Positions 10,458-55,431 of a DNA stretch of 59,011 nucleotides are shown in pieces. How positions within the stretch are numbered: the first letter of the stretch is position 1; each line of letters starts with the position of its first letter. The notes under the pieces are model-generated. The model saw nothing but the letters and a program-made list of their open reading frames with translations. It had not been told where the DNA came from and did not search any database. The position numbers were made by a program, and so were the translations under genes. Source of the DNA: an uncultured Dehalococcoidia bacterium (GTDB lineage: Bacteria > Chloroflexota > Dehalococcoidia > Lucifugimonadales > CAUZEB01); NCBI GenBank assembly GCA_964431885.1, contig CAYSLK010000138.1, forward strand, positions 1-59,011, read 5' to 3'.

Positions 10458-11495
10458 TTAGGGTTTACACGCCTTCATCACAGCCCTCACAGATGCTAGT
10501 GACGGGCGCGCGCTAACCACTCTTACAATTGCAGTATCTAGTCCCTGAGCTAAAGAGGTGAGTGCCTTGCTAGCACCTTCCGGCTTACCATAATATCCTA
10601 CACTTAGAAGTAATTCTGGGGGGAATGCCTCTATGATCTCGGAACGTGGTGCTCCATCCACTCGCATTTTGTCTATTCTCTTAAGAGTGTCAGAAAATCC
10701 GATTCGCTCAAAATGAGCTCTGTATCCCATTCGTCTCTCTTGGGAAGTTGGTACACGAGCACCAAGAGCATAGGGCATAAGTGATTTCGTGAAGGCTTCT
10801 CTAGCTAATTCCACGTCGTCGTCTATGCAAACGCGTATATACTCAACGGTCTTTATCTCGGATGGATCTCGGCCTGAAATGGTAGCACCTTCTGCAATCT
10901 TCTCTTTGCTCCAGACTCTCTGCTCAGGTGTGCACCAATTAAGTGCGGCACCATCAGCGAGTTCTCCAGCTAACTTCAACATCTTGGGACCTAAAGAACC
11001 TAGGTATATTGGTGTGCGCGGTGGAGGCCTTATGCCCAACCTAACATCAGTCAAGGTAACCACTTCACCTCTATAATCCAACTTCTCTCCAGACAGTAGC
11101 AAACGAAGGGTTGTCAAATAATCTCTCATCATCGAAAGAGCTGAAATATCAGGAAGTCCCATGCTAAGACGCGATGCAGATTGGTATACGGATCCAGCAC
11201 CTATTCCCAAGATAAACTTACCACCGGTTAATTCACTCAAGGTTCCACCGCTCATCGCTAAAGCAACTGGAGAACGGTACATCACCGGAACTACGGATAT
11301 ACCTGTGGTCAAACCTGTAGATGCTTCCCGTTGACTAGCTCTCCAACGATGGGCACAAACCTGAAAAGAGTCCCGGCCTGTCGTCTCAGGTGTCCAAATA
11401 CTGGTATATCCAAGTCTCGCAGCTTCGTATGCCATCTCTGCTTCATCCTCAAAGGATAACCGTAGAGAAGCATCTAATCCAAGCCCTATATCCAT
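10458..11495 (-). CDS. LLM-class (luciferase-like) flavin/F420-dependent oxidoreductase
   Basis: The N-terminus MDIGLGLD...EAARLGYTSIWTPE and overall TIM-barrel LLM pattern (LGIGAG, GPKMLKLAGELADG). Confidence 0.85.
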   Translation of the reverse strand: MDIGLGLDASLRLSFEDEAEMAYEAARLGYTSIWTPETTGRDSFQVCAHRWRASQREASTGLTTGISVVPVMYRSPVALAMSGGTLSELTGGKFILGIGAGSVYQSASRLSMGLPDISALSMMRDYLTTLRLLLSGEKLDYRGEVVTLTDVRLGIRPPPRTPIYLGSLGPKMLKLAGELADGAALNWCTPEQRVWSKEKIAEGATISGRDPSEIKTVEYIRVCIDDDVELAREAFTKSLMPYALGARVPTSQERRMGYRAHFERIGFSDTLKRIDKMRVDGAPRSEIIEAFPPELLLSVGYYGKPEGASKALTSLAQGLDTAIVRVVSARPSLASVRAVMKACKP

Positions 11496-14148: not shown

Positions 14149-15777
14149 ATGGTACTAATGAGAGGATCACAACTCCTAGTGAATCAATTGTATTCAGAAG
14201 GAATAGACACAGTATTTTCACTTCCGGGCGTTCAAATCATGTCCGTCTTTGATAGTTTATATGAATTCAGAGATAGGATTAGATTAATTCAAACAAGACA
14301 CGAACAGGCTACTACTTATATGGCTGACGGATACGCTAAAGCTAGTGGTAAGCCCGCCGCGGCTATCGTTGTACCTGGTCCTGGACTGTTAAACGCTACA
14401 GCTGGTCTAGGTACAGCCTATTCTTCTTCATCTCCTGTTTTACTCATCTCTGGTCAGATTCAAAGTGACTCCATAGGAAAACAGAAAGGGGAACTGCATG
14501 AAATCGACGATCAACTGGATATTGTCGAACCTATTACCAAATGGAACCAGCGAGTCACGAAAACAGAAGATATACCTGAGGCAATCCATAATGCAATGCA
14601 TGAATTAAAAACAGGGCGTCCCAGACCGGTAGAATTAGAAATACCGTATGATTTCCTAACTGATACAGTCGAAACGAACCTTATGGCACCATCAGAATAT
14701 CCTCGCAAGGAAGGTTCACAAAACAATATTCAAAAGGCTGTGCAGTTATTGTCCAGTTCTGAAAATCCCACTATAATCGCCGGCGGCGGTACAACTATCT
14801 CGGATGCTTCAAGTGAATTATTAGAGTTGGCGGAACTTCTTCAAGCGCCTATTCTTACAACTAACCAGGCAAAAGGGATAATACCAAGTGATCACTATCT
14901 CAACATGGGAACAGAATTTGCGGGATTAGGCCCTGGAGAGAGAATCATCCCCTACAGTGATGTTGTAATCGGAATAGGTACTCGATTCATGACTGATTTT
15001 ACTATTAATAAAGAGCAAAGGATTATCCAGGTAAATATAGATCCAGATGAGTTAGGTAGGAATACTCGATGTGATATAGGAATCTTAGGAGATGCCAAAA
15101 CCATTGTCAGACAGATTCTAAATAATCTCCAATCTAGAGTAAAACAGAGACGATCGCGTAAAGATAGCATGATTCAACAGAAAAAGGAGTACAGGAAAGA
15201 GCTAAAAGAGATAGCACCAGCTCAAATGGAAATAGTAGAAATACTCCAGAATACACTGCCAGGAAATTCCATTCTTGTAGGTGGTATTACCAATGCAGCT
15301 TACTGGAACCATTTAGCATATGAGGTACGTAATCCAAGATCATATTTAACCTCGTCTTATTTTGGCACCCTAGGTTATGCTTTCCCGACCGCGTTAGGTG
15401 CGAAAATTGCACAACCTGAAAAACCCGTAGTCTCAATTTCCGGGGACGGTGGTTTCATGTTCAGTGCTCAGGAATTATCCACCGCCGTGAAATACAAAAT
15501 TAATATCGTTGCCCTGGTATTTAACAACAATGCATATGGAGCGTCTAGAAGAGATCAGACTGACAATTATGAAGAACGTTACATAGGTACAGATCTGTTT
15601 AACCCTGATTTTAAAGCGATGGCTGAATCATTTGGGGCCATAGGATTAAGATCAGATATAAAAGGGCTACCTAAAACTTTGGATATTGCGCTGAATGCGA
15701 ATGCCCCGGTCCTATTAGAAGTTCAAGTACCCATAATGCCAGTACCATCGCCTTCACTTAGAACGGAGAACCACTAA
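14149..15777 (+). CDS. thiamine-diphosphate-dependent enzyme (acetolactate synthase large-subunit-like), paralogue 1
   Basis: N-terminal Pyr domain (RHEQATTYMADGYAKASGKP, VPGPGLLNATAG) and C-terminal PP domain (ISGDGGFMF...NNNAYG). Confidence 0.9.
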   Translation: MVLMRGSQLLVNQLYSEGIDTVFSLPGVQIMSVFDSLYEFRDRIRLIQTRHEQATTYMADGYAKASGKPAAAIVVPGPGLLNATAGLGTAYSSSSPVLLISGQIQSDSIGKQKGELHEIDDQLDIVEPITKWNQRVTKTEDIPEAIHNAMHELKTGRPRPVELEIPYDFLTDTVETNLMAPSEYPRKEGSQNNIQKAVQLLSSSENPTIIAGGGTTISDASSELLELAELLQAPILTTNQAKGIIPSDHYLNMGTEFAGLGPGERIIPYSDVVIGIGTRFMTDFTINKEQRIIQVNIDPDELGRNTRCDIGILGDAKTIVRQILNNLQSRVKQRRSRKDSMIQQKKEYRKELKEIAPAQMEIVEILQNTLPGNSILVGGITNAAYWNHLAYEVRNPRSYLTSSYFGTLGYAFPTALGAKIAQPEKPVVSISGDGGFMFSAQELSTAVKYKINIVALVFNNNAYGASRRDQTDNYEERYIGTDLFNPDFKAMAESFGAIGLRSDIKGLPKTLDIALNANAPVLLEVQVPIMPVPSPSLRTENH

Positions 15778-17399
15778 TGGTTAAACTAACCGGAGCCGAA
15801 GCCCTTGTACAACAATTACAAAAAGAAAAAGTAACTACTATCTTCGGGTTGCCAGGCTTCCAGATCATGGAAGTGTTTGATGCTCTCTACGGAGCTCGCG
15901 ACAAAATTCAATTAATACATACTCGCCATGAACAAGCAACCTCCTTCATGGCTGATGGATATGCTAAAGTTACAGGAAAACCAGGTGTTGCCTTAGTCGT
16001 TCCAGGGCCGGGTGCTCTCAATGCAAGTGCTGGTATCGGAACCGCCTATGCATCGTCATCGCCAGTTCTCTTAATCTCAGGGCAAATACCAAGAGCATCC
16101 CTTGGTTTAAGAAAAGGTGAAACACACGAAATTGAGGATCAACTCGACTCATTTCGAGCTATAACGAAATGGAATCATCGTGTAGAAAAAGTTGCCGAGA
16201 TTCCAACCGCTGTAAATGAAGCAATCAGGCAATTAAAATCAGGACGGCCTCGTCCTGTAGAATTAGAAGTTCCTTTCGATTTATTCAAGGATTCATCTGA
16301 AGTTGCATTGATAGAGCCTGCGGTTCTTCCTGCCAATCGCGCCCAAACAAGTGATATTACCAGGGCAGTAGACATGCTTATCAAATCCAAGAACCCGACC
16401 ATTATCGCTGGCGGTGGAGCAATAATTGCCAATGCAACAACAGAATTGACAAACCTAGCCGAATTTTTTCAGGCTCCTGTAATAACAACACAAAATGGGA
16501 AAGGTATAATACCAGAGACTCACCATCTTTCCGTTGGAGTGAATTATTACACATTAGGTCCTTCCAAATTGGTTGGCCCTAACTGTGACGTAATTCTTGC
16601 AGTTGGGACTCGTCTTCTCTCAGATCTCCATATCAATAGTTCAACCAAAATAATTCACATTGATATTGACGCATCTGAAATTGCTAGGAATTATCCAACA
16701 CAGACAGAAATCAGTATAGTATCAGACGCGAAGAATGCTTTAGCACAGATGTTACAACAAGCGCAGCGTCTCGACCATCCCAAGCCATCCAGGACCAAAG
16801 AAGTAAATCAATATAGGACGCAATTCAAGAAAGAGATCCGTCTATATGCTCCTGAACAAATGAGCATAATAGACACATTAAGATCCGAACTCAACGACGA
16901 TGCAATCGTCGTCAGTGGAATAACGAACATAGGGTATTGGAGTCATCTAGGCTATCCAGTAAGCCACCCAAGATCCTATATTACATCCTCCTATTTCGCC
17001 ACTCTAGGATTCTCTTTTCCAACAGCCCTCGGAGCAAAGGTTGCCCATCCAGATCGTCAAGTGGTAGCTATTTCTGGAGATGGAGGATTCATGTACTCGT
17101 TTCAAGAGCTTTCAACAGCTGTTAAATATGGAATTAATGTCATCATATTGTTATTTAATAATAATGCCTACGGGGCATCAGAATGGGATCAAACTCACAG
17201 GTACAATAAACACTATCTTGGTACTGATCTGCACAATCCAAACTTCGTTAAATTAGCAAATTCGTTTGGGGTTCAGGCTATAAGGACGGACAGCAACGGC
17301 TTTAAATCTGGCCTCAGAAAAGCATTGAAAGTCGACGCTCCCGTTCTCCTAGAAGTTACTATCCCAACGATGATGCCGCCTTTTCAAATTGTGCAGTAG
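15777..17399 (+). CDS. thiamine-diphosphate-dependent enzyme, paralogue 2
   Basis: Same domain pattern (RHEQATSFMADGYAKVTGKP, ISGDGGFMY...NNNAYG). Its start overlaps the upstream stop (TAATG). Confidence 0.9.
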   Translation: MVKLTGAEALVQQLQKEKVTTIFGLPGFQIMEVFDALYGARDKIQLIHTRHEQATSFMADGYAKVTGKPGVALVVPGPGALNASAGIGTAYASSSPVLLISGQIPRASLGLRKGETHEIEDQLDSFRAITKWNHRVEKVAEIPTAVNEAIRQLKSGRPRPVELEVPFDLFKDSSEVALIEPAVLPANRAQTSDITRAVDMLIKSKNPTIIAGGGAIIANATTELTNLAEFFQAPVITTQNGKGIIPETHHLSVGVNYYTLGPSKLVGPNCDVILAVGTRLLSDLHINSSTKIIHIDIDASEIARNYPTQTEISIVSDAKNALAQMLQQAQRLDHPKPSRTKEVNQYRTQFKKEIRLYAPEQMSIIDTLRSELNDDAIVVSGITNIGYWSHLGYPVSHPRSYITSSYFATLGFSFPTALGAKVAHPDRQVVAISGDGGFMYSFQELSTAVKYGINVIILLFNNNAYGASEWDQTHRYNKHYLGTDLHNPNFVKLANSFGVQAIRTDSNGFKSGLRKALKVDAPVLLEVTIPTMMPPFQIVQ

Positions 17400-33198: not shown

Positions 33199-34086
33199 AT
33201 GACAAACACTTTGACAATCATAGAAAGACTAGAAAGAGGGGATATTTTAATATCCGATGGAGCCACTGGCACTTATCTTCAAGCCCACGGGCTTGAACCT
33301 GGCGGTTGCCCGGAAGAATTTAATATTAGTCATCCTGAAATTATAAGACGCATGGCTCGCGAATACTTTGACGCAGGATCAGACTTGGTTCTAACAAATT
33401 CATTCGGTGGCAACAGATTTATGCAAGAGAAATACGGCTTAGGCGACAAGGTAAAAGAAATCAATCGTTTAGCAGCTGAACATGCAAAGAGCCAAACTCC
33501 ATCCGGTTGTTATGTAGTGGGTTCAATCGGCCCCACAGGCGAATTTCTGGAGCCACTTGGGCCGGTAACAGAAGAACAGATGCTAAACGCTTTCACAGAA
33601 CAAGCATGCGCCCTAGAAGAAGGAGGTGCTGATGCTGTAGTTATAGAGACACTTACTTCTATCGAAGAATGCGTTCTGGCAATAAAAGCTGCGAAGGAAA
33701 ATACAAAGCTGACAGTTATGGCTACCCTAACCTATGACAAAGGGCCAAGGGGTTTCTTCACTATGATGGGGGTAACACCTCAAATAGGAGTTACTGCTTT
33801 GAAAGAAGCAGGAGCTGATGTAATAGGTGCCAACTGTGGTAATGGGATAGACGTAATGGTCGAATTGGCCGCTGAGTTACGAGCTGTTACAAACGACTAC
33901 CTACTAATCCACTCAAACGCAGGAATACCATCTCTGCAAAACGGTGAAATAATATATCCCGAATCACCTAACTACATGGTCGATGGATTTCTACAATTAG
34001 TGGATCTTGGAGTAAATATACTAGGCGGCTGTTGCGGTTCGAATCCTGAACATATCAGAGCCTTAGCCAAGGCTATAAAAAATTGA
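33199..34086 (+). CDS. homocysteine S-methyltransferase-domain protein (MetH N-terminal / BHMT / MmuM type)
   Basis: ILISDGATGT, LVLTNSFG, and the Zn-ligand cysteines in GANCG and LGGCCGSNPEHI. Confidence 0.85.
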   Translation: MTNTLTIIERLERGDILISDGATGTYLQAHGLEPGGCPEEFNISHPEIIRRMAREYFDAGSDLVLTNSFGGNRFMQEKYGLGDKVKEINRLAAEHAKSQTPSGCYVVGSIGPTGEFLEPLGPVTEEQMLNAFTEQACALEEGGADAVVIETLTSIEECVLAIKAAKENTKLTVMATLTYDKGPRGFFTMMGVTPQIGVTALKEAGADVIGANCGNGIDVMVELAAELRAVTNDYLLIHSNAGIPSLQNGEIIYPESPNYMVDGFLQLVDLGVNILGGCCGSNPEHIRALAKAIKN

Positions 34087-34141
34087 ATCATTTTACTATC
34101 ATAAGATGAAATCTCTCGAATAGTAGGGGAAAGGAATTCTA

Positions 34142-34819
34142 ATGACTCTTGGTAAAAACGAAATATCGTATCAAGTCTACGACGTCCTGAACCGATATGG
34201 AACATGTGTTGAACTGATACCAGTAGACAAATATTTTCACGATATTACTATCGGTCTTTATCTAAAAAATAAGGTTTGCACTGTATGGACATTCAGTAAA
34301 CGACAAGGTGTTCATGAGAGAATTCTTCAAATCAGAAATCAGCTAGTCTCCCTTGGAGGAATGGTCCCAGTTGACGGAACCCACAATCAAGCTGAGTTCT
34401 CCTGCGGATATTTACACTTCAGACCTGCTAAATTTCTACTCAACCAAGCTGTAAATAAGAGCCCAGAATATTCTGCAAGTAATAATCCAATGACCATTAG
34501 AGATACGAAGAGTACATTGACTATCCAAGCAGTCGCTGTACAAAGAGATGATCAATGGGTCTACCAGATAGCTGGAAAGGGTGAAGCGCCCAACAAAGCC
34601 ATACGTATTCGGATGATAGTCGCAGGTTTCATTCGATATGGTGAAATGAATAAGGTTAATGACACGGAAGTATCCTTTTCCTGTGGCCAGCGTCACGATG
34701 ACATAACCAGGCTGTTACTGCCTTTTTCACGGAACATTTCTAGCGTGGAAAGCATGATCGCCGCAGAAGCTCTACGAGGTCAAATGACTACTGGCACTTT
34801 AGGTTTCACCCCGATCTAA
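34142..34819 (+). CDS. hypothetical protein with internal duplication (two FSCG..H repeats)
   Basis: 225 aa. MVPVDGTHNQAEFSCGYLHFRPAKFLL (residues ~74-100) and MNKVNDTEVSFSCGQRHDDITRLLL (~169-193) are clearly related repeats. I recognise no family. Confidence 0.6.
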   Translation: MTLGKNEISYQVYDVLNRYGTCVELIPVDKYFHDITIGLYLKNKVCTVWTFSKRQGVHERILQIRNQLVSLGGMVPVDGTHNQAEFSCGYLHFRPAKFLLNQAVNKSPEYSASNNPMTIRDTKSTLTIQAVAVQRDDQWVYQIAGKGEAPNKAIRIRMIVAGFIRYGEMNKVNDTEVSFSCGQRHDDITRLLLPFSRNISSVESMIAAEALRGQMTTGTLGFTPI

Positions 34820-34904
34820 CCCAACTGTAAACAACTTATTTGCTTTTATAGCCAGACTTCAACTTAACAGACCATGTTTTTACAAACATTGAGGAGGCCA
34901 TTAC

Positions 34905-35942
34905 ATGCCCACCAGTGCAACAATGACACCAAGAGAGCGAGTTTTAAACGCCCTGTCCGGCTCTCCTGTCGATCGTACTCCCGTAGCCAATCCAACAAGT
35001 GTGGCGACCGTAGAACTCATGGATATGGTGGATGCTCCATTTCCTGGCGCATGCCGTGATCCCGAAATGGCTGCTCGTCTAGCAGCTACGGGTCATACGA
35101 TACTGGGATTCGATTCCGTAATGCCGTATTTCACTATTATTCAGGAGTCTTCTGCGTTAAATTGTGAAATGCAGTGGGAAGGGAAAGATAATTGGCCAAC
35201 AGTGCGCATGTACAATCCGATTTGGAGAGGTCCTAACGACATCTCAATACCTCCCGATTTCCTTGATCATCCTGATAATCAGACAATCACCAAATCAATT
35301 GCGATGTTAAAGTCGGAATTTGGCAACGAAGTTGCAATAATAGGGAAAACTATGGGCCCATGGACACTAGCTTACCATGTATTTGGTGTGGAAAGTTTTC
35401 TTTTAAGTACTGTTGATGACCCTTCACTAGTTAAAAAAGGATTGAATAAATTGAAAGAGATTTCTATTCTCTTTGGGGAAGCACAAATTGACGCTGGGGC
35501 AGATATACTAACTTTTCCTGATCACGCAACAGGAGACTTAGTTAGTGGCGATTATTACAGAAGATTTCTTCAAGAACTGCACGTGGAAATGGCTGAACGA
35601 CTCTCAGTACCCCTAATTCTCCATATTTGCGGTAATACGCTCGACAGAATGAAATATATTGCTGAAACCGGCATGGCGGCTTTCCATTTCGATTCTAAGA
35701 ATGATCCTCAGTTAGCTATGGACGCAGTTGAAGGCAAAATAGCTATGGTTGGTAACATAAATAATCCTGAAACCCTGTACGCCAGAGGACCTGAGGAGGT
35801 TCGAGAGGAAGTATTCAGAGCTTTAGACGCTGGCGTAGATTTAATTGCTCCAGAATGTGCGATTCCTCTGGCAACGAAACTCGAAAATCTTCTTGAAATT
35901 CCTAGATCAGTAATAAAATGGCATGAAGAACGGGATGGATAG
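34905..35942 (+). CDS. uroporphyrinogen-decarboxylase-family methyltransferase (MtaA/MtbA/MtsA-like, Zn-dependent methylcobamide:thiol type)
   Basis: MTPRERVLNALSG.PVDR.P N-terminus, Zn motif LILHICGNT (H-x-C) and a distal Cys in APECAIP. RBS GGAGG 7 nt upstream. Confidence 0.85.
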   Translation: MPTSATMTPRERVLNALSGSPVDRTPVANPTSVATVELMDMVDAPFPGACRDPEMAARLAATGHTILGFDSVMPYFTIIQESSALNCEMQWEGKDNWPTVRMYNPIWRGPNDISIPPDFLDHPDNQTITKSIAMLKSEFGNEVAIIGKTMGPWTLAYHVFGVESFLLSTVDDPSLVKKGLNKLKEISILFGEAQIDAGADILTFPDHATGDLVSGDYYRRFLQELHVEMAERLSVPLILHICGNTLDRMKYIAETGMAAFHFDSKNDPQLAMDAVEGKIAMVGNINNPETLYARGPEEVREEVFRALDAGVDLIAPECAIPLATKLENLLEIPRSVIKWHEERDG

Positions 35943-36143
35943 TCCCTATCACACTATAGAGTCCGTACTTCCAAAGGTGATTATTTTTCAAATGCCTAAT
36001 CTATTGCTTCAAAATCACATCTTTCCAATACAAAGTGGCTAGATTTAAATTTAACTGATAAAATCTTTTATGATCATCAATGTCTATTTATAGATGACCA
36101 CAATCTATGGAGGTCTATACCTAAATGGTGGGGAAGAAAACAA

Positions 36144-36887
36144 ATGCCCATTACACATGATGGTTTGAAGAAGGAATTTGAATATATCGGTAAGCCCTTT
36201 GAGTTGAATCACATCCAAAGTCTATTCAACGACTCCGACCCATTAATGCACGAAATGGCTCACAACCTCATAATAGGCAATCAACACGAAGTAGATCGTC
36301 TAACAAAAAAAGCTCTTGACTCAGGGTTTTCCGCTAATACTATCCTAGACGATGGTCTCATATCTGGTATGGCTATTGTCGGGATTAAATTTAGAGACAA
36401 TTTTATTTTCGTCCCTGAGGTTTTAGTGGCGGCTCGTGCAATGAAAGCAGGGATGGCACACTTGGAACCTATATTGTCAGCCTCTGGTATAAAACCAATT
36501 GGCACTATCATAATGGGTACCGTAAAGGGCGATCTGCACGACATAGGTAAAAACCTTTGCATCATGATGCTAAGAGGAGCCGGATTCACTGTTCACGATC
36601 TCGGAGTTGACACCACATCAGACACATTCATTGAAGCGGTATCTGAACACAATGCTGATATTTTAGGAATGTCAGCATTGTTAACCACAACCATGCCTAA
36701 TATGGGCAAGACTATAGAAGCATTTGAAGAGTTGGGGCTACGTTATGAAGTTAAAATCATGGTCGGAGGTGCTCCATTGACACAAGAATTCGCCGATGAT
36801 ATGGGTGCCGATGGGTACGGACAGGACGCTATATCCTGCGTAGATCTCGCTAAAACATTTGTAGGCATCCAGACATTAAATCAATAG
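36144..36887 (+). CDS. corrinoid (cobalamin-binding) protein, MtaC/MtbC-like
   Basis: B12-binding motifs GDLHDIGKN (DxHxxG), MSALLTTT (SxL) and MVGGAP (GG), preceded by a helical cap domain. Confidence 0.9.
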   Translation: MPITHDGLKKEFEYIGKPFELNHIQSLFNDSDPLMHEMAHNLIIGNQHEVDRLTKKALDSGFSANTILDDGLISGMAIVGIKFRDNFIFVPEVLVAARAMKAGMAHLEPILSASGIKPIGTIIMGTVKGDLHDIGKNLCIMMLRGAGFTVHDLGVDTTSDTFIEAVSEHNADILGMSALLTTTMPNMGKTIEAFEELGLRYEVKIMVGGAPLTQEFADDMGADGYGQDAISCVDLAKTFVGIQTLNQ

Positions 36888-37364: not shown

Positions 37365-37697
37365 GTGATGAAGAAGGATCGCTCTCCGACACTGAAAGAA
37401 ATCGGTGATTTGATTTCCCATTCGCTAGATGCGGGAATTAAGTTGAAACGCTTACAAGGCTTTGACATAGACCTTTCAGCTAATAAGGATTTTCACAAAG
37501 TATTTTTTTCAGCCATATGCTCGTGTGGTACTGCAGCTGTACTTAGCGTAGAGGTTTCCAATAATAAAACCATGAATGAAATCAAACGCGCGCTCCCGTC
37601 ACTAGTAAATAAACTCACAGTTCAGAGTGAAATGTTCTATCGTATGTCCTGCGACATGCACAAGAAAATGCGGAGCGGTCTCACAGACAAACTCTAA
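37365..37697 (+). CDS. hypothetical protein
   Basis: 110 aa ORF (GTG 37365 or ATG 37368 after GAGG). Contains a CSC motif. No family recognised. Confidence 0.45.
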   Translation: MMKKDRSPTLKEIGDLISHSLDAGIKLKRLQGFDIDLSANKDFHKVFFSAICSCGTAAVLSVEVSNNKTMNEIKRALPSLVNKLTVQSEMFYRMSCDMHKKMRSGLTDKL

Positions 37698-37727
37698 ACA
37701 CCAAGATCTCTTGATAAAAGGATTAAC

Positions 37728-38165
37728 ATGGCAAGGCGTCCAAAAAAGCAATTTACAGAGGCAGAGGCATTACAACGAGCCAAAAAGTTTTCCGAAGGCT
37801 ATGTTAAAAAAGGTCCGTACGAATTTTTCCCCGAACAAGATGTTGTTCAGGTGGTGCAAGAAGGATTGGGAGAAAATGAAAGGAAATTCGGATATCGTTA
37901 TTGCCCTTGAATGCCCCTAAGCGGTGATCCCGTCGAGGATCGCAAGAAAATATGTCCTTGTGAGCGTCATCATGAAGACATAGAACGAGATGGATTCTGT
38001 ATATGAATGTTTTTTGTAAGCGAAGAGTTTCTTCGCAAGTATGAATCTGGGGAAGATTTCAGCCAAACTATAGACGAGGCTGTTCCGCTTGGCGAAGAGT
38101 TGTTTGGCGAGGGTGGAGGCAAACGAGAGTTCAACGATAAAAAACGTAAACAAGCTTCAGAATAG
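37728..38165 (+). CDS. ferredoxin:thioredoxin reductase catalytic-subunit-like protein, predicted selenoprotein with two Sec (TGA 37908-37910 and 38004-38006)
   Basis: Reading through the two in-frame TGAs gives a 145-residue protein, KKFSEGYVKKGPYEFF..VVQVVQEGLGENERKFGYRYCP-U-MPLSGDPVEDRKKICPCERHHEDIERDGFCI-U-MFFVSEE... It is collinear with the FTR catalytic chain (..KFSEQYA.R..TYF...VI.GLA.HK..LG.PLCPCRHY..NCPCVPMRERKECHCMLFL). The TGAs fall on the second Cys of the first motif and the second Cys of the third motif. RBS AAGGA lies upstream of ATG 37728, and a stem-loop follows each TGA. Confidence 0.8.
37924..37943 (+). promoter_or_regulatory. SECIS-like stem-loop for TGA 37908
   Basis: 7 bp stem GUGAUCC/GGAUCGC (one G-U pair) with loop CGUCGA. 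20 nt separate the UGA from the loop, and G is the second loop base. Confidence 0.55.
38020..38036 (+). promoter_or_regulatory. SECIS-like stem-loop for TGA 38004
   Basis: Perfect 7 bp stem GCGAAGA/UCUUCGC with loop GUU. 20 nt separate the UGA from the loop, and G is the first loop base. Confidence 0.6.
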
Positions 38166-38206
38166 CTTAACATTTATTATATAAGCAAATTGAAAGGAAC
38201 GAAGTC

Positions 38207-38455
38207 ATGGAAGATACAGGAGTTCAAGTTTATAGCTCCAACGGCTGAGGTCCCTGCCAAATGGTGAAGGTGTACCTTTCACGAAAGGGAATTCCATTTG
38301 AGGAATTTAATGTGTCATTAGACAGAGAAGCATTGACACGGCTGGTTAAAATGGGTTACAGAACGACACCCGTTGCGATTATTGGTAACGAGAAGGTAGT
38401 TGGATATAGCCCTTCCAAACTCGATTCTGCATTGAATACCGCCGGGCTGAGTTGA
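38207..38455 (+). CDS. NrdH/glutaredoxin-like redoxin, predicted selenoprotein (Sec at TGA 38246-38248; active site U-G-P-C)
   Basis: ATG 38207 (RBS AAGGA about 8 nt upstream) gives MEDTGVQVYSSNG-U-GPCQMVKVYLSRKGIPFEEFNV..TPVAIIGNEKVVGYSPSKL. It is collinear with NrdH/Grx (IYT..DCVQC...L...G..FE..NV...LPVV....GF.P), with the TGA at the first Cys of CxxC. The ORF track only reports the part after the TGA (38261..38455). Confidence 0.8.
38264..38282 (+). promoter_or_regulatory. SECIS-like stem-loop for TGA 38246
   Basis: Stem GUGAAGG/CC(U)UUCAC (7 bp, one bulged U) with loop UGUA. 22 nt separate the UGA from the loop, and G is the second loop base. Confidence 0.5.
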
Positions 38456-38544
38456 GATTCTAATATCTGAGCAATACTTCTGGCCTATTCGCAATAATTA
38501 CACAGACGTATACGACAATTTAATCTAATATGAACCGATGTCTA

Positions 38545-38574
38545 TTGACCAAACATCTGGTCACGGTCTAGAAT
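38545..38574 (+). promoter_or_regulatory. candidate promoter for tRNA-Asp
   Basis: TTGACC (38545-38550), an 18 nt spacer, then TAGAAT (38569-38574), ending about 35 nt before the tRNA 5' end. This is pattern match only. Confidence 0.25.
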
Positions 38575-38608
38575 TCATCGAAGGCATTGACTGACAGTTT
38601 AGAAACGG

Positions 38609-38683
38609 GGCCCCGTGGTGTAGTGGTTTTAACACACTGCCCTGTCAAGGCAGAGATCGCCGGTTCGAATCCGGTCGGGGTCG
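38609..38683 (+). tRNA. tRNA-Asp (anticodon GTC)
   Basis: Hand-folded cloverleaf. Acceptor GGCCCCG/CGGGGTC (one G-U pair), D stem GTGT/ACAC, anticodon stem CTGCC/GGCAG with loop CTGTCAA, T arm GCCGG-TTCGAAT-CCGGT. CCA is not encoded. Confidence 0.9.
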
Positions 38684-38771
38684 CTTCTCAATTTAAACAA
38701 AATAGATAGCGCCTAAAGCACGAGCATACAATAAAACAGAAAGGCCCATAGTTATCAATGGAGGTGTATTG

Positions 38772-43596: not shown

Positions 43597-45021
43597 ATGG
43601 ACGAAACTTTAGTATTCCTACCTGCTACCGAATTATTAGAATTGATTGCTTCCAAACAGATATCGCCCGTGGAACTAACCAAACTTTATTTCAGACGTAT
43701 AGAACGCATAGACCCGCAATTAAATTCTTACCTTATTACAATGGAAGATGAGGCATTAAAGACGGCTGTAACTGCTGAACAAACCATCATGAAGGGTGAA
43801 GAATTAGGTGCATTACATGGCCTGCCAATTTCTATTAAAGACACGCAAATGACCAAAGGAGTAAGAACAACGACAGGCTCGCTTGTTTTCCAAGATCGAA
43901 TTCCTGACAAAGATTCAGCCGTGGTGGAACGAGTTAGGAAAGCCGGAGCAATATTACTTGGTAAAACAAATACTCCCGAGTTTGGGTTGGTAGGCACATG
44001 TGCAAACAATTTGGGAGATCACGGTCGTAATCCGTGGAACACTGAGTATACTCCTGGAGGGTCGAGTGGTGGAGCCGCAGCAGCCATGTCTGCTTGTTTA
44101 TGTGCTTTATCAACTGGCGGAGATGGAGGAGGTTCAATACGTATTCCCGCAAGTTTCTGTGGTATCTACGGCATAAAGCCAACTCAAGGCAGAGTATCCG
44201 GCTACACAGGAATCCAAACACCACCTATTCTTAATATATTTGGCCAACAGGGACCGCTAAGTCGGACCGTTAAAGACTCCGCTCTTCTTTTACAAGTTAT
44301 GGCTGGGTACGACCCTAGAGATCCCTCATCATTGCGTGAGGCTACACCCGATTTTCTCGCAGCTGTTGATCAAGACATACGCGGATTACGGGTAGCGTGG
44401 AGTCCGGATTATGGCTTCGCGAATGTAGATCAGGAAGTAAATGAAGTAACCCAGACAGCAGCAAAGGCATTCGAAGATCTAGGGTGCCATATTGAAACCA
44501 TAGACTTGAGATTAGAATCGCCGTACGACGCATATGGACCTATCTATGAAACTGCCGCATACGCATCCTACGGTCAATACATAAAATCGCATGGTGAACA
44601 ACTGACTGAATTCTCCAGATTTTTTATAGAAGCTGGATCGAAAATCTCCGGCGCCGACTATGCTAGAGCCCTTGGTCTGATAGATAGACTTAGATCGCAA
44701 ATGGACGATGTATTCACCGAGTATGATCTACTACTGTCACCCACCCTATCCGTACCCGGTGTTCGGGTCGGTGAATTTCCTGCAGAGATAGCCGGAAAGC
44801 CTGCTTATCCCCACCGATATTTTGGCTTTCATCCTTTCACTTATCCTATTAATGCAATAGGTCACGCAGCAGCCAGTATCCCAGCCGGCTTCTCCTCAAC
44901 AGGATTACCTATTGGTTTACATATAGTGGGAAAAAGAGGCGCCGAAACAACAGTAATAGCTGCTTCAGCCGCTTTTGAGAAGGCAAAGCCATGGATCCAC
45001 CATAACCCACCTGTGTCTTAA
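43597..45021 (+). CDS. amidase (amidase-signature family)
   Basis: [11 protein letters not shown] and [12 protein letters not shown] motifs. Confidence 0.9.
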   Translation: MDETLVFLPATELLELIASKQISPVELTKLYFRRIERIDPQLNSYLITMEDEALKTAVTAEQTIMKGEELGALHGLPISIKDTQMTKGVRTTTGSLVFQDRIPDKDSAVVERVRKAGAILLGKTNTPEFGLVGTCANNLGDHGRNPWNTEYTPGGSSGGAAAAMSACLCALSTGGDGGGSIRIPASFCGIYGIKPTQGRVSGYTGIQTPPILNIFGQQGPLSRTVKDSALLLQVMAGYDPRDPSSLREATPDFLAAVDQDIRGLRVAWSPDYGFANVDQEVNEVTQTAAKAFEDLGCHIETIDLRLESPYDAYGPIYETAAYASYGQYIKSHGEQLTEFSRFFIEAGSKISGADYARALGLIDRLRSQMDDVFTEYDLLLSPTLSVPGVRVGEFPAEIAGKPAYPHRYFGFHPFTYPINAIGHAAASIPAGFSSTGLPIGLHIVGKRGAETTVIAASAAFEKAKPWIHHNPPVS

Positions 45022-46686: not shown

Positions 46687-48207
46687 TTAAGTAAGATTTT
46701 CCCATTCGACATTACTCTCGAAAGCGTATGCGGTATTCAAAAGGCCAGCATCATCGAAATGTCGACCTATCAGCATTAGGCCCACAGGTAGACCGCTAGG
46801 CTTTCCACAAGGGACACTAATGGCCGGATGGCCCGTAATATTTGTTGGAGCGGTATTCCCCGACATATTCGAGCTATACTCCATAAGTTCACTAAGGCTT
46901 GCATTAGACCTGTATTGATGGGCCTTCATGGGAGTTGTAGGCATAGCTAACATATCTACTTGCTGAAAAGCACGATCATAACTATCTCGCAAAATTTTAG
47001 CAGCGTTCTGCGCTCTGCCATACACACTTCCATGATAAGTTTGATTTAGGTAAGTTCCCAATAAGAGCATAATCTTTACACTGGGGGGGAAATCATTCCC
47101 GTTCGTGATACGAGACTTACCAAGAACGTTGGCAAATGCGACATTATGGTGTCCACCAGAATGGTACCCTACGCCATTTTCACGTAACCCCATTGCACCA
47201 CCTTCGGCCGCAATTGCCCACGCAATGACTTTTCCGATATCTCGGTGCTCTGGAATTGACACTTCTTTAATTTCAGCACCCAAATCGCCCAAGACAGTCA
47301 AAGCATTACGAACCGAAGTATCCACCTCAGGATCTGATATCTTAAGACCAAAACCTTCCCTAACCAATCCTATTCTTAGGCCACTTATATTCTTTGATAA
47401 ATTATCAACATAGGATTCTACATTAAATTCAATTTGACGCGGATCCTTATGATCATTACCAGCTATAACTTCTAGTAATAGGGCAACGTCTTCTACATTA
47501 CGAGCCATGGGACCGGCATGATCGATGGTCGCATCTGCTCCTACTATTCCAGTATATCGAACTAGTCCAACCGTTGGCTTTAGACCCACCACGTCAAACC
47601 ATGATTCCGGCATACTGATGGATCCACCCTGATCACAACCGATAGTCATATCGACGTAATCATAATATAGAGATGCCGCTGACCCTCCGGAAGAACCTCC
47701 CGCCAGATAATGAGTATTATGCGGATTTAAAATGGGACCATAAGCACTTATCGCCCCTGCTCCAGAATAGGCGAAATCGTCCATGTTAAGTATCGCTGTG
47801 ATTTTCCCACCTTCTCCCAAGATCCTCGTAACTATCGTTGCATCGTCATCCGGCACAAATCCATCTAAGACTGTGGATCCACATGTCAAGGGTATGCCAG
47901 CAACACTTATATTGTCTTTCAAGCCAATTCTTTTTCCTGCCAACTTACCATTACTGCTGCCAGAAACCACGCATCTCCGTATAATGGCATTGAAAGGATC
48001 TTCCCTACAACTCGGCTTATCTAGAATCGAAACATCCCTCGTTATACTTGATCCGTTAGTAGGTCTAATACTAAAAAATTTGTCGAATGATTTTACCATT
48101 GGTTTCATTAGTGACTCAAACACTTCCAGTTCCTCATCATTTAACTCCATATGATTTTCGTTTGCTAAACGGTACAAATCATTTTTTGACGGTGGTCTGA
48201 TTTTCAT
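46687..48207 (-). CDS. amidase (amidase-signature family)
   Basis: GGSSGGSAAS and the CDQGGSISMP motif; 506 aa. Confidence 0.9.
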   Translation of the reverse strand: MKIRPPSKNDLYRLANENHMELNDEELEVFESLMKPMVKSFDKFFSIRPTNGSSITRDVSILDKPSCREDPFNAIIRRCVVSGSSNGKLAGKRIGLKDNISVAGIPLTCGSTVLDGFVPDDDATIVTRILGEGGKITAILNMDDFAYSGAGAISAYGPILNPHNTHYLAGGSSGGSAASLYYDYVDMTIGCDQGGSISMPESWFDVVGLKPTVGLVRYTGIVGADATIDHAGPMARNVEDVALLLEVIAGNDHKDPRQIEFNVESYVDNLSKNISGLRIGLVREGFGLKISDPEVDTSVRNALTVLGDLGAEIKEVSIPEHRDIGKVIAWAIAAEGGAMGLRENGVGYHSGGHHNVAFANVLGKSRITNGNDFPPSVKIMLLLGTYLNQTYHGSVYGRAQNAAKILRDSYDRAFQQVDMLAMPTTPMKAHQYRSNASLSELMEYSSNMSGNTAPTNITGHPAISVPCGKPSGLPVGLMLIGRHFDDAGLLNTAYAFESNVEWENLT

Positions 48208-50912: not shown

Positions 50913-52139
50913 ATGCATCTGATGTACTTTACAGAACAGCCGATGTCAACATATCCAGAGCAAGAAGCTCTCGATGCAGGAGGTGTGAGTGCTTTAATGC
51001 TCTCAAATAAACACTTCAACCCAGAGGAAGGGAGCAGGCTATATAACGAGCGGTTAGAAGAGTATATTTACGCAGAGGAAATGGGTGTGGATGGAATCAT
51101 GTTAAATGAACACCATAACGCCCCTTTTTGCATGCAAGCCAGAGTCAACATATTTGCAGCCGCATTAGCTGCTGTAACTGAAAGAGTTAAAATAGTCCTT
51201 CTAGGCAACCCTTTGCCCGTCAATGAAAACCCACTCCAGACTGCTGAAGAAATAGCTATGGTAGACATGATGAGCAAAGGTCGTCTAGTATCTGGCTTTG
51301 TAAGAGGTGGAGGAACAGAACAATTTGCTAACAATACGAACCCTGCATATAACCGTGAACGTTTTACAGAAGCTCATGATTTACTAATTAAGACCTGGAC
51401 TGAACCTGGTCCTTTTAGATGGGAAGGTAATCATTACCAATTCCGAGTGGTAAATCCATGGGCATTACCCCTACAAAAACCTCATCCTCGCATCTGGATA
51501 CCAGGGGTAGCTAGTTTGGAAACTATCATATGGGCTGCTGAACACAGATATCCCTATATATGCTTGAACACTAGTATAGAACAAACAAAACAGATTTGGG
51601 AACTCTATGATCGAACGGCTGAAAAATCAGGATATATCGCAGGGCCGGAGCAAAGAGGTTACCTAATCCGATGCCATGTAGCAGAAACCGAAGAGAAAGC
51701 AATTAAAAATGGCAGAGAATTTATGTGGATGCAGGGTGAATTTACTGGCGTAGGGCACCCGACCTGGTTCAGTCCCCCTGGTTATACTTCTGCTCAGTCA
51801 CGTAAGCGGGCTGCTGAAGGACAAAAACTTAGGAGTAAGACTACCTTTGAAGATATGCTAAACATGGGGATGATAATTGCTGGAACCCCAGATCAAGTTG
51901 TAGAAAGGTTAAAGAAAATAATGGAGGAAACCCGCCCATCCATTTTAGCTCTATGGGGAAACGACGGTAAAGTAGATCACAAGGATTCCTTGGAATGTAT
52001 TCGTTTATTAGGGCAAGAAGTCATGCCGAAAGTAAGAGAAATTGGAGATAGGCTTGGTCTCCTAAGCCCATTTGAGTTAAATTCTCCTGTCAGTCTAGCA
52101 GCCTCACAACTAAACAACCAGTGGACTGCCTCAGCATGA
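50913..52139 (+). CDS. LLM-class flavin-dependent oxidoreductase
   Basis: GVDGIMLNEHH and a luciferase-like barrel pattern; 408 aa. Confidence 0.85.
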   Translation: MHLMYFTEQPMSTYPEQEALDAGGVSALMLSNKHFNPEEGSRLYNERLEEYIYAEEMGVDGIMLNEHHNAPFCMQARVNIFAAALAAVTERVKIVLLGNPLPVNENPLQTAEEIAMVDMMSKGRLVSGFVRGGGTEQFANNTNPAYNRERFTEAHDLLIKTWTEPGPFRWEGNHYQFRVVNPWALPLQKPHPRIWIPGVASLETIIWAAEHRYPYICLNTSIEQTKQIWELYDRTAEKSGYIAGPEQRGYLIRCHVAETEEKAIKNGREFMWMQGEFTGVGHPTWFSPPGYTSAQSRKRAAEGQKLRSKTTFEDMLNMGMIIAGTPDQVVERLKKIMEETRPSILALWGNDGKVDHKDSLECIRLLGQEVMPKVREIGDRLGLLSPFELNSPVSLAASQLNNQWTASA

Positions 52140-52628: not shown

Positions 52629-53132
52629 TCAATCGATTTGAAGTTGATCGCCCTCTATAACAATTACCTGGCCACGAAAAGATACTATAGCTCTCGTGAA
52701 ACGCCTCAATTCTTGTCGAAGTCCATCCATACGTCGCATAACTTCTGATTCGTAAGGTTCATTAGGTGCCATAGCCATAGATTTACCCCAAAGTCCGGGT
52801 TGAGGTAAATTCTTTAAGAACTGACGTAAGTGAATCAAAAAGGCCTCAAATGTTTGTGAGGACACTTCATATATAGGCGTAGCAGTCTGTGGTTCAGTAA
52901 ACATAAACTGCAGTATCCACTCATCATTTGTAACCCTGTTAGACATGACAAGACTAGGCCAGGGTTGACTAGAAAAGACCGTCCTAGTCTCGTCGTTATC
53001 TTTTCCGACCTCCCTGAGTGTTGCTTGTAAAACTCTTAATAAGGAAGAAACATACGACACTGGCAAATGTTCGGATCTTAAAGCGATTTCCAGCCCTAGC
53101 AGACCTTTTTGTTCCTGGTTTACTTTATTCAT
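52629..53132 (-). CDS. hypothetical protein, probably co-transcribed with selB
   Basis: 167 aa ORF starting 18 nt downstream of the selB stop on the same strand. No family recognised. Confidence 0.55.
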   Translation of the reverse strand: MNKVNQEQKGLLGLEIALRSEHLPVSYVSSLLRVLQATLREVGKDNDETRTVFSSQPWPSLVMSNRVTNDEWILQFMFTEPQTATPIYEVSSQTFEAFLIHLRQFLKNLPQPGLWGKSMAMAPNEPYESEVMRRMDGLRQELRRFTRAIVSFRGQVIVIEGDQLQID

Positions 53133-53150: not shown

Positions 53151-55013
53151 CTAACGTAGGATACGTACATCTCCTACACGACGAGTAATCCGTTCTTTAT
53201 CTAAATAATCCATAAGGGCCAAAGCATATTTACGACTCGTTCCAAATATATCCCTAACGTTAGCGATAGTTATCTGACCGTGTTCGTTGATATGTTTACC
53301 AATTCCGTCTACCATTTCCACATATGCCGACATGGAAAATGTAACACTATCACTTACTCTGACTACTTGACCTTGATCAACAAGAGCGTTCACCACTTCC
53401 GGATCGATTATTACATCAGTAGGCGGTGCGAATCTATCCGATTCCAGCAAACTTATATATTGCCCTACAACTTCTTGATGTAACTCACTAAAACTAGGAC
53501 TGTGTCCAGTGAGCCTAACTATGGCACCACTTTCAACTATATTCAATTCTCTTACAAGCATGGCCAGTATTTGATTAAATATTTGAGGTGTTATATCTAG
53601 CCTACTGCGAACCTCCTCTTTGGGAGCTCCTTGACGTAAAGGAAACTGTGCATGATAACGCTTCAAATATTCTACGGTCTCCTGCACAACACTATCGAAT
53701 CCTGTCTTTGTATATAAGTAGTCACCTGGTTTGACAACTTTCTGCCCAAGTACAACCACTAAACTATCTGATGCCATGCGATCTATTATATTTTTTGCAT
53801 ACTCGAACTCAAGATTAGCCTTGGAAACCAGCTCGCTAAACTCACAAGGCTCTGACATTTCTATAGTTTTTAGAATTATATCGCTTTCAGACCCTTTAGA
53901 CATAGTCTCCAGTCTGCTCAGGGTAGGGGAATGCATTCTCCTATGACGACGAGCATGAGTGTCCACAATAGTTCCACCACCGAGTGTAGTTCTATTTGAC
54001 CTTACAACAAAATAATCACCCTTTACCACTGCGATCGGAGAATTCAATTTAAGTTGTGCCCACGTAATATCTCCTGGATTGGAACGTTGTTTATCAAGTA
54101 AACGAACTTTTGCTATCACTTCGTTGCTTCCAGAATGTACAGTTACAAACATGTTATGCGATATAGGAAATTGCGAGTCAGTCACAACTCTCAAACTGAC
54201 ATCAATCGCCATAGTAGGATTTAACCAGCCTGGAGATGCCATCACTTCGCCTCGGCTAATTTTATCCGGGGATATACCACTCAAATTGGCGGCCACACGA
54301 TTCCCTGGTAAAGCGTGAGTCTGATTCCGTTTGTGTGTTTGTAACCCTCTTATACGGGTCTTCTCCCCAGACAACACTAACTCCATTTCAGTACCAATAG
54401 TTAAAGAACCATCTGTTAGAGTTCCGGTTACTACCGTACCAAATCCTTGTACAGTAAACGATCGGTCAATAGGGAGGCGTGGCCTCCCTAGACTGCGCTT
54501 TATGGGGACATCTTGTAACAGGTTATCAAGTTTTGAAATTAGCAAAGACATGCCCTCGCCTGTTACACCCGAAACTCTCAAGACTGGAATTCCTTCCATT
54601 GTCGTACCTTGGAGAGCTTCGTTAATATCACCTTCCACTAGATCAAGCCAATCACTATCAACAAGATCACTTTTTGTTAAAGCTACCAAGCCATGTTTGA
54701 CCTGAAGAAGATCCAATATCGCTACGTGTTCCCTCGTTTGAGGCATCACCGATTCGTCAGCAGCTACTACTATCAAAGCCAGATCTATACCACCAATGCC
54801 TGCTAACATATTATTTATAAAACGCTCGTGGCCGGGAACATCAACAATACTTACTTGGTTGCCGCTAGGCAAATCGAGCCAAGCAAAACCCAAGTCGATA
54901 GTCAATCCTCGTTCTTTTTCTTCGACGAATCTATCTGGATCTATTCCAGTAAGTCTCTCAACTAGAGTTGACTTACCATGGTCTACATGACCAGCAGTCC
55001 CCACAACATACAT
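53151..55013 (-). CDS. selB: selenocysteine-specific translation elongation factor
   Basis: GTAGHVDHGKSTL, DVPGHERF and TKSDL GTPase motifs, EF-Tu-like domains II/III, and a C-terminal winged-helix tail (RDIFGTSRKYALALMDYLDKERITRRVGDVRIL). ATG 55013 has GGAG 7 nt upstream; the ORF-track ATG is at 55028. Confidence 0.9.
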   Translation of the reverse strand: MYVVGTAGHVDHGKSTLVERLTGIDPDRFVEEKERGLTIDLGFAWLDLPSGNQVSIVDVPGHERFINNMLAGIGGIDLALIVVAADESVMPQTREHVAILDLLQVKHGLVALTKSDLVDSDWLDLVEGDINEALQGTTMEGIPVLRVSGVTGEGMSLLISKLDNLLQDVPIKRSLGRPRLPIDRSFTVQGFGTVVTGTLTDGSLTIGTEMELVLSGEKTRIRGLQTHKRNQTHALPGNRVAANLSGISPDKISRGEVMASPGWLNPTMAIDVSLRVVTDSQFPISHNMFVTVHSGSNEVIAKVRLLDKQRSNPGDITWAQLKLNSPIAVVKGDYFVVRSNRTTLGGGTIVDTHARRHRRMHSPTLSRLETMSKGSESDIILKTIEMSEPCEFSELVSKANLEFEYAKNIIDRMASDSLVVVLGQKVVKPGDYLYTKTGFDSVVQETVEYLKRYHAQFPLRQGAPKEEVRSRLDITPQIFNQILAMLVRELNIVESGAIVRLTGHSPSFSELHQEVVGQYISLLESDRFAPPTDVIIDPEVVNALVDQGQVVRVSDSVTFSMSAYVEMVDGIGKHINEHGQITIANVRDIFGTSRKYALALMDYLDKERITRRVGDVRILR

Positions 55014-55431
55014 ATGGTGACTCCACATTTCAAAGTGATCCTAAGAATAGCATAGGCATCGTTTAGGGGCAATTTGATAAACATTGGTCGTCCCTACCAA
55101 ACGTCCAATAACTTTAGAAGATGCTAATAAGAAGTAACCTAATAGGCTGGCATCTCTTTATCTTGTATTTTCATGTATAAAGGATCTGAATAGTCTCACC
55201 TCTAATTGTCCAATGAAGAATCAAGTTAATCTTCTCTGATAAAAAAGAATACTGTGTCGCTACAAAATCTATATCGTAGGTGCATACATACATGTGGACT
55301 CATTAGCTTTCATAGCATACAATCCTATCTAGACATGTAATATAGAAAGCGTTGCCACCAAGCCAAGAATCTATTACTAGCTTTTATTGACTTGGCCATT
55401 AAAGCCATCCCGTGAATTAGGAGGATGATAA

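Follow-up and report, generated by a model that had tools for sequence, protein, structure and literature searches.

A contig of 59,011 nucleotides from an uncultured marine bacterium of the Dehalococcoidia/SAR202 group (CAYSLK010000138.1, here called the window in its full length) carries two adjacent genes on the forward strand, ftrB and grx, which together hold three in-frame TGA codons, each followed by a short stem-loop. The question raised by this locus is whether the three hairpins are selenocysteine insertion sequence (SECIS) elements of the bacterial type, one for each UGA, as had been proposed in the original prediction from the window alone. The present analysis supports that interpretation, to which we assign a probability of roughly 0.93 from comparative sequence data: the hairpins are conserved, their synonymous sites are frozen, their geometry fits the bacterial SECIS model, and a gene for the selenocysteine-specific elongation factor SelB is present in the window.

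Genes, UGA codons and hairpins

The first gene, ftrB (37728..38165, forward strand), comprises 145 codons for a predicted protein of 145 amino acids with selenocysteine (Sec) at residues 61 and 93. With the TGA codons replaced by Cys, the product matches Pfam FeThRed_B (E = 2.4e-22) and is a homologue of the catalytic subunit of ferredoxin:thioredoxin reductase (FTR). It scores 226.3 bits against NF041072, an NCBIfam equivalog named ‘FtrB family double-selenoprotein’, in an alignment that spans positions 1-120 of the 121 in the model; this exceeds the curated cutoff of 160, and the two UGAs fall at the CxU positions, so that the protein qualifies as a member of the family. The cysteine and Sec motifs appear in the order C-P-U, C-P-C and C-I-U, with UGA-1 (37908..37910, forward strand, Sec61) in the first and UGA-2 (38004..38006, forward strand, Sec93) in the last. 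The second gene, grx (38207..38455, forward strand), begins with the ATG at 38207, not 38208, and its 82 codons encode 82 amino acids with a U-G-P-C redox motif, UGA-3 (38246..38248, forward strand) specifying Sec14 at the first position of this CxxC-type motif. The product matches Pfam Glutaredoxin (PF00462) with 49.4 bits against a cutoff of 22.9, and stays under the cutoff of every specific NCBIfam glutaredoxin family (YruB, NrdH and Uxx-star), the top score being 74.8 bits for YruB against 88.55 bits. The predicted protein is a glutaredoxin (UxxC) selenoprotein with Sec first in its CxxC-type motif; no subfamily is claimed.

The three stem-loops, here labelled SECIS-1 to SECIS-3, were all found where they had been placed by hand folding, the third with its 5′ arm at 38264-38270, and all are on the forward strand. 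SECIS-1 begins 13 nt past UGA-1 and consists of a stem at 37924-37930/37937-37943 with the arms GUGAUCC and GGAUCGC (7 bp including one U.G pair) and the loop CGUCGA at 37931-37936. Its isolated fold has an energy of -10.1 kcal/mol (z = -3.3); the hairpin is absent from the minimum-free-energy fold of the 60-nt segment, and present in the 36-nt local fold, the isolated fold and the RNAalifold consensus. SECIS-2, also 13 nt past its UGA, is a perfect 7-bp stem at 38020-38026/38030-38036 (arms GCGAAGA and UCUUCGC) with the loop GUU at 38027-38029, and folds with -9.2 kcal/mol (z = -3.5). SECIS-3 lies 15 nt past UGA-3, with its stem at 38264-38270/38276-38282 and the loop UGUAC at 38271-38275. 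Between the UGA and the loop lie 20, 20 and 22 nt, and the G of the loop stands at +25, +24 and +27 from the UGA, in agreement with the original prediction. The common geometry is a 7-bp stem with a loop of 6, 3 or 5 nt that carries G-U at loop position 1 or 2.

Besides the absence of hairpin 1 from the 60-nt fold, a second detail of the original prediction had to be revised. Hairpin 3 had been drawn with a bulged U and the loop UGUA, whereas the orthologues and the ViennaRNA folds of the window give 7 bp, including one G.U pair, with a 5-nt loop and no bulge. The bulged register is an alternative that is possible only in the window sequence, owing to its AAG and UAC codons, which are AAA and UAU in most relatives; the unbulged register is the sole one possible in most orthologues. 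Its energy is -7.2 to -7.3 kcal/mol in the window, -8.1 kcal/mol for the family consensus and -15.2 kcal/mol for the 60-nt fold.

A prokaryotic scan with one genome per species returned 199 FtrB relatives, the best 80 of which were taken as genome orthologues. These 80 all belong to Dehalococcoidia, SAR202 or Chloroflexota, and the closest is a marine Dehalococcoidia metagenome-assembled genome with 90% identity. A second, more distant ftrB clade was represented by 77 sediment and soil metagenome loci. Both ftrB TGAs are kept in 80/80 genome orthologues and in 75 of the 77 loci of the second clade, where the stems are identical, and UGA-2 is TGA in all 157 orthologues examined. A grx gene with the signature TGA-GGN-CCN-TGY adjoins ftrB in 79 of the 80 genome loci, and TGA is present in all 79 grx orthologues found; the gene mostly lies downstream of ftrB and is on the opposite strand in 9/80 loci. 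The spacings from UGA to loop are constant across all orthologues, and the alignments are free of gaps. The hairpins are thus conserved where the TGA is kept, at the ftrB sites (80/80, and 75/77 in the second clade) as well as at the Grx site (79/80).

In the second clade (L083-L162, e.g. L084:1201-1635), stems are identical and loops differ: the SECIS-1 loop reads UGAUGA, with a change from Val to Asp, and keeps the loop G but not the U that follows it, and the SECIS-2 loop reads GUA, with a change from Phe to Tyr.

The selB gene (53151..55028, reverse strand) lies about 15 kb from the two selenoprotein genes. Its product contains the Pfam domains GTP_EFTU, Beta-barrel_SelB, SelB-wing_2 and SelB-wing_3, the last two being the C-terminal winged-helix domains; it scores 341.7 bits against TIGR00475 (cutoff 242) and matches E. 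coli SelB (5lzb_z) over its full length with E = 2.4e-66. An open reading frame beside selB (52629-53132, reverse strand, 167 amino acids) has no family match.

The ftrB family is systematically mis-annotated in public data. The public gene calls P0001-P0009 for ftrB homologues show W at both Sec positions, i.e. genetic code 4, and the calls P0010-P0012 stop at the TGA. The calls with W would agree with a reading in which TGA encodes Trp or Gly (genetic code 4 or 25), or in which the genes are pseudogenes or contain sequencing errors, the hairpins being irrelevant in each case. TGA is not reassigned genome-wide, however, because it terminates 10 of the 40 Pfam-supported genes in the window. 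Moreover, the three TGAs fall exactly at catalytic Cys positions (the CxC of FTR and the CxxC of Grx) and are kept in about 155 independent assemblies, selB is present, and the family is curated as a selenoprotein family (NF041072). We consider the chance that reassignment or error explains the codons to be very remote.

Synonymous sites and base pairing

The evidence that carries the SECIS interpretation comes from the synonymous positions of the orthologues. As measured by synonymous entropy, the stem codons are near-fixed, while loop and flanking third positions vary freely. When the 84 scored columns of both genes were ranked by normalized synonymous entropy, the 15 lowest were all stem or loop-G codons, and the mean was 0.15 for stem and loop-G codons compared to 0.86 for the others (Mann-Whitney p = 7.8e-10). 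After UGA-1, the codons GGC GAU ... GAG GAU CGC have entropies of 0.17, 0.23, 0.10, 0.74 and 0.70 bits. In the 3′ arm, freezing is only partial for GAU and CGC, and the loop codons for Pro and Val have 1.65 and 1.66 bits (range for loop and flanking Pro/Val codons, 1.65-1.9). After UGA-2, the series AGC GAA GAG UUU CUU CGC is almost invariant, with GAG and CUU each in 81/81 sequences, and both codons are held even in GC-rich relatives in which the neighbouring codons are UUC, GUG and UAC. After UGA-3, GUG AAA GUG ... CUU UCA is frozen, and the UAY codon of the loop varies freely at its third position. As all columns share one tree, the contrast between frozen and free sites cannot be put down to relatedness.

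The loop G itself is a frozen synonymous third position in two of the elements (GAG 81/81 in SECIS-2 and GUG 75/75 in SECIS-3), which is direct evidence of selection on the nucleotide that the SECIS model requires. Comparison of the orthologues shows strong purifying selection on the hairpin nucleotides, including synonymous sites and the loop G, in all lineages that have kept the TGA.

The codon 5′ of each UGA (37905-37907, 38001-38003 and 38243-38245) also has reduced synonymous freedom, with CCU/CCC in 78/81, AUA/AUU in 77/78 and GGU/GGC in 76/79 sequences. This bias hints at a context effect on UGA decoding.

These data bear directly on the possibility that the hairpins are products of chance or codon usage, formed as a by-product of the conserved peptides GDPVEDR, SEEFLR and VKVYLS. 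The encoded peptides are indeed strongly conserved, but amino-acid conservation cannot freeze synonymous sites such as those for Leu (CUU in 81/81 and 77/77), Ser (UCA in 78/79) and Glu-Glu (GAA-GAG in 78/81 and 81/81), and outside the stems the full set of codons is in use for residues that are just as conserved. The freezing persists in GC-rich relatives whose flanking codons have shifted to G or C, and in some sequences the amino acid changes where pairing is thereby kept. Although the window by itself gives such a by-product some room, through weak 60-nt folds and a background of about 1.2% of positions with some 7-bp hairpin (both described below), this explanation appears highly improbable.

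Base pairing was scored across the aligned orthologues. For SECIS-1, 95.9% of cells are paired, compared to 44% in the best slid register (range of slid registers 14-44%), with no compensatory pairs; for SECIS-2, the values are 99.6% and 71%, with two compensatory pairs, and for SECIS-3, 99.6% and 62%, with one. The compensatory substitutions that the original prediction had called for therefore exist in hairpins 2 and 3, where they are few, and are missing from hairpin 1. In SECIS-2, a C-G pair is replaced by U-A in L028 and L032 at the cost of an Arg-to-His change, and a G-C pair by A-U in L076 together with a Ser-to-Asn change; in SECIS-3, a G-C pair is replaced by U-A in L024 and L062 with Val-to-Leu and Leu-to-Ile changes. 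Covariation is sparse because the stems hardly vary. From the alignments alone, RNAalifold recovers all 7 pairs of SECIS-2 and of SECIS-3; run on the three alignments, it shows no conserved lower helix that would extend to the UGA.

Known SECIS elements, controls and remaining alternatives

The bacterial SECIS (bSECIS) model (bSECISearch; Zhang & Gladyshev 2005, summarized in PMC13188914, Fig. 2) describes a loop of 3-9 nt on a stem of 4-16 bp, with G as the first or second loop base and in most cases G or U after it, a distance of 16-37 nt from the UGA to the apical loop, and an energy of -7.5 kcal/mol or lower (PMC13188914). All three hairpins lie within these ranges for loop, stem, loop G and spacing, and each is found in coding sequence directly after an in-frame UGA at a redox-active Cys position. 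They share with the model the hairpin within the coding sequence after a Sec UGA, small loops (3-6 nt) with G then U, and a spacing (20-22 nt) inside its range, and differ from it in having no conserved lower helix back to the UGA. The folds of hairpins 1 and 2, with -10.1 and -9.2 kcal/mol, lie below -7.5 kcal/mol, and hairpin 3 is marginal in this respect.

The original prediction had likened the hairpins to the SECIS element of E. coli fdhF. An fdhF sequence with an exact match annotated as fdhF in 5419 of 5426 E. coli genomes was folded, and the likeness was borne out: a stem-loop lies just 3′ of the UGA, and its apical loop, GGUC, holds G-U. The fdhF loop begins 18 nt after the UGA, 2-4 nt nearer than the 20-22 nt seen here. 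Unlike the present hairpins, fdhF forms a longer structure of two helices, about 40 nt in length, and there is no sequence in common. The fdhF element has a bulged U in its 5′ arm; no bulge is conserved in the present hairpins, which are simple stems of 7 bp.

An FTR catalytic-subunit selenoprotein was described by Zhang & Gladyshev in 2008 from Global Ocean Sampling reads, with two Sec residues at both redox-active Cys positions and a predicted bacterial SECIS after the UGA; the report was based on two reads and asked for verification (PMC2398784). The double-Sec FTR family is listed in two later reviews (one of them PMC9312934). The ftrB product described here belongs to the same protein family as the 2008 selenoprotein and NF041072. 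Beyond the 2008 report, the present data contribute about 155 orthologues and, from their synonymous sites, evidence for each of the two elements; they also assign the family to Dehalococcoidia/SAR202 and show its linkage to a Sec-glutaredoxin and to a conserved gene upstream. Selenoproteins of the glutaredoxin UxxC type are likewise established, one example being the Grx of Clostridium (Kim et al. 2011, as cited in PMC9312934). The grx product resembles the Clostridium protein in its glutaredoxin fold, in having Sec first in the redox motif and in the SECIS directly downstream; unlike it, the grx product lies below the specific NCBIfam cutoffs and is genetically linked to FtrB in this lineage.

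A SECIS of the archaeal or eukaryotic kind would lie in the 3′ untranslated region (3′-UTR), e.g. as one element after grx serving all UGAs, with the in-frame hairpins being incidental. Some features of the window looked archaeal, namely a tRNA-Asp gene downstream of grx (38609-38684) and an AT-rich, TATA-like stretch before grx. However, all relatives are Chloroflexota, and the window encodes a bacterial-type SelB that has winged-helix domains. The Rfam scans (see below) matched no SECIS anywhere in the window, including 38456-38608, and the nine genome loci in which grx is on the opposite strand to ftrB make a shared 3′ element impossible. An archaeal origin with a 3′-UTR SECIS was ruled out by the Chloroflexota relatives, the bacterial selB and the elements within coding sequence, and the likelihood of a 3′-UTR arrangement is practically negligible.

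The window by itself gives only moderate statistical support. The original prediction had held that three hairpins in the same register are unlikely by chance, and had set two outcomes against itself: folding no better than that of codon-shuffled controls, and loss of the hairpins in orthologues that retain the TGA. Neither was seen, as the hairpins are kept with the TGA and, locally, folding is better than in synonymous recodings. In local folds compared to 3000 synonymous recodings, the values for hairpins 1, 2 and 3 are 0.020, 0.005 and 0.038, and against the coding background 0.033, 0.056 and 0.14; the folds of 60-nt segments, which the original prediction had suggested as a check, are weak. 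A strict motif, defined as a stem of 7 bp that begins 13-15 nt downstream and is closed by a loop of 3-6 nt opening with (N)GU, occurs at 0.13% of all window positions and behind 5 of the 2213 TGA triplets in the window, three of the five being UGA-1, UGA-2 and UGA-3; as the motif was defined after sight of the three hairpins, these rates are somewhat flattering and are indicative only. Any 7-bp hairpin at an equivalent place is found at about 1.2% of window positions. Within ftrB and grx there is no further such hairpin, so that each UGA has one. It is the comparative evidence that decides the question, not the window statistics.

The window was also scanned for more genes with a TGA and a hairpin, and nothing credible was found. 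Candidates with a TGA open on both sides and a hairpin at 35057 (forward strand), 31956 (reverse) and 1506 (reverse), as well as the strict-motif candidates at 6458 (forward) and 17615 (reverse), are off-frame or antisense to Pfam-supported genes and were rejected.

Several observations weigh against the SECIS interpretation. The 60-nt folds have z-scores of only -2.1, -1.6 and -0.5 for hairpins 1, 2 and 3. In the window, hairpin 3 (-7.2 kcal/mol) falls just short of the bSECIS cutoff of -7.5 kcal/mol, which may concern another segment length. Independent compensatory events number about three at most, none of them in SECIS-1; the fourth pair of SECIS-1 is an uncompensated A.C in 14/70 sequences, and RNAalifold keeps just 5 of its 7 pairs. 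Rfam gave no SECIS match in the whole window at gathering thresholds or in 37600-38620 at E up to 10, the scans returning solely the tRNA and one chance snoRNA-like match. The 59-kb window yielded no tRNA-Sec, selA or selD. Finally, two metagenome contigs, L081 (565-567) and L082 (596-598), have TGC (Cys) at site 1 and retain UGA-2, and both keep an intact hairpin 1 despite the TGC. Natural Cys controls are limited to these two contigs, and hairpin decay is not seen in them.

The persistence of hairpin 1 behind a Cys codon, together with the uncompensated mismatch in 20% of SECIS-1 sequences, would be in line with another role of the hairpins at the RNA level, besides or instead of SelB recruitment, such as a ribosomal pause that lets the Fe-S cluster be inserted during translation, an effect on mRNA stability, or the binding of another protein. 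However, the Cys variants are singletons nested in the TGA clade, and L083 is identical to them in the downstream nucleotides; the TGC probably reflects either a recent replacement of Sec by Cys or a variant introduced in sequencing or assembly. The three hairpins have no stem sequence in common, and what they do have in common is the distance from the UGA, the small loop and the loop G, with one hairpin per UGA and no others in both genes. We regard such a role as very improbable.

As bacterial SECIS elements, the three hairpins would act as follows. Lying 13-15 nt downstream, each would still be folded while the ribosome nears the UGA. The C-terminal winged-helix domain of SelB would bind the hairpin at its apex, contacting above all the loop G (usually G-U), and the complex of SelB, GTP and Sec-tRNA(Sec) would be tethered 20-22 nt from the UGA. 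At the A site, Sec-tRNA would then compete with release factor 2, and after its delivery the ribosome would melt the hairpin and translate it as G-D-P-V-E-D-R, S-E-E-F-L-R or V-K-V-Y-L-S. Binding of the hairpins by SelB and insertion of Sec at the UGAs are what we infer from the frozen sites and the SelB-type geometry.

The conserved cassette and its significance

Directly upstream of ftrB lies orf110 (37365..37697, forward strand, 110 amino acids), which forms part of the context of the SECIS elements and not of the elements themselves. It is found directly 5′ of ftrB in 75 of the 80 genome loci, and orf110, ftrB and grx constitute a conserved cassette in the marine clade. In the sediment and soil clade, neither grx nor orf110 is present within 1.2 kb of ftrB; in one locus of this clade, L084, a 47-amino-acid desulforedoxin-like gene lies downstream on the opposite strand. 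The orf110 product has no Pfam or NCBIfam family match. Its invariant residues are C52, C54, C96 and H99 (CxC...CxxH), and its AlphaFold model is confident (pLDDT 87.6, pTM 0.77); a fold search of the PDB with this model gave no significant match (best E = 0.23, TM at most 0.33). From its conserved position and the model, orf110 may be a new partner of the FtrB/Grx pair.

By homology, the two Sec residues of FtrB would occupy both positions that form the redox-active disulfide of FTR, beside the Cys ligands of the 4Fe-4S cluster. The FtrB redox pair would then probably be a diselenide or a selenylsulfide, and Grx would probably act as a selenolate nucleophile; their linkage suggests that FtrB and Grx work as a redox couple. 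More tentatively, and with the odds against it, the cassette could be a dedicated selenium-based chain from ferredoxin to disulfides, in which the selenium-containing reductase passes electrons to a selenolate glutaredoxin and orf110 is a metal-binding partner that replaces the variable subunit of FTR.

Just upstream of the cassette is a methyl-transfer cluster (33199-36887, forward strand) with genes for a member of the homocysteine S-methyltransferase family (33199-34086), for a methyltransferase resembling URO-D/MtaA (34905-35942) and for a corrinoid protein that binds B12 (36144-36887). This neighbourhood is common only to the closest relative, L001. Elsewhere, the window has a paralogue-rich catabolic content: three amidase paralogues (7290-8729 and 43597-45021, forward; 46687-48207, reverse), two luciferase-like monooxygenases (10458-11495, reverse; 50913-52139, forward) and two tandem thiamine pyrophosphate enzymes (14149-17399).

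The elements described here are ordinary bacterial SECIS elements in selenoprotein families that have already been described, and they bring no new biology of SECIS function. Their recognition gives the correct full-length proteins for genes that are mis-called in public data, either truncated at the TGA or read with W. The alignments provide unusually clean evidence that each UGA of FtrB has its own working SECIS, as predicted, where the earlier basis was two metagenome reads (PMC2398784). The hairpins may also have locked the peptide sequences that they encode. The lineage motif, a UGA followed after 13-15 nt by a 7-bp stem whose small loop opens with (N)G, lends itself to searches for further selenoproteins in SAR202 and Dehalococcoidia genomes. 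Hosts of the SAR202 type are among the most abundant bacterial groups of the deep ocean. For these organisms, the locus points to a ferredoxin-dependent reductase whose redox pair is probably a diselenide, and which is linked to a Sec-glutaredoxin.

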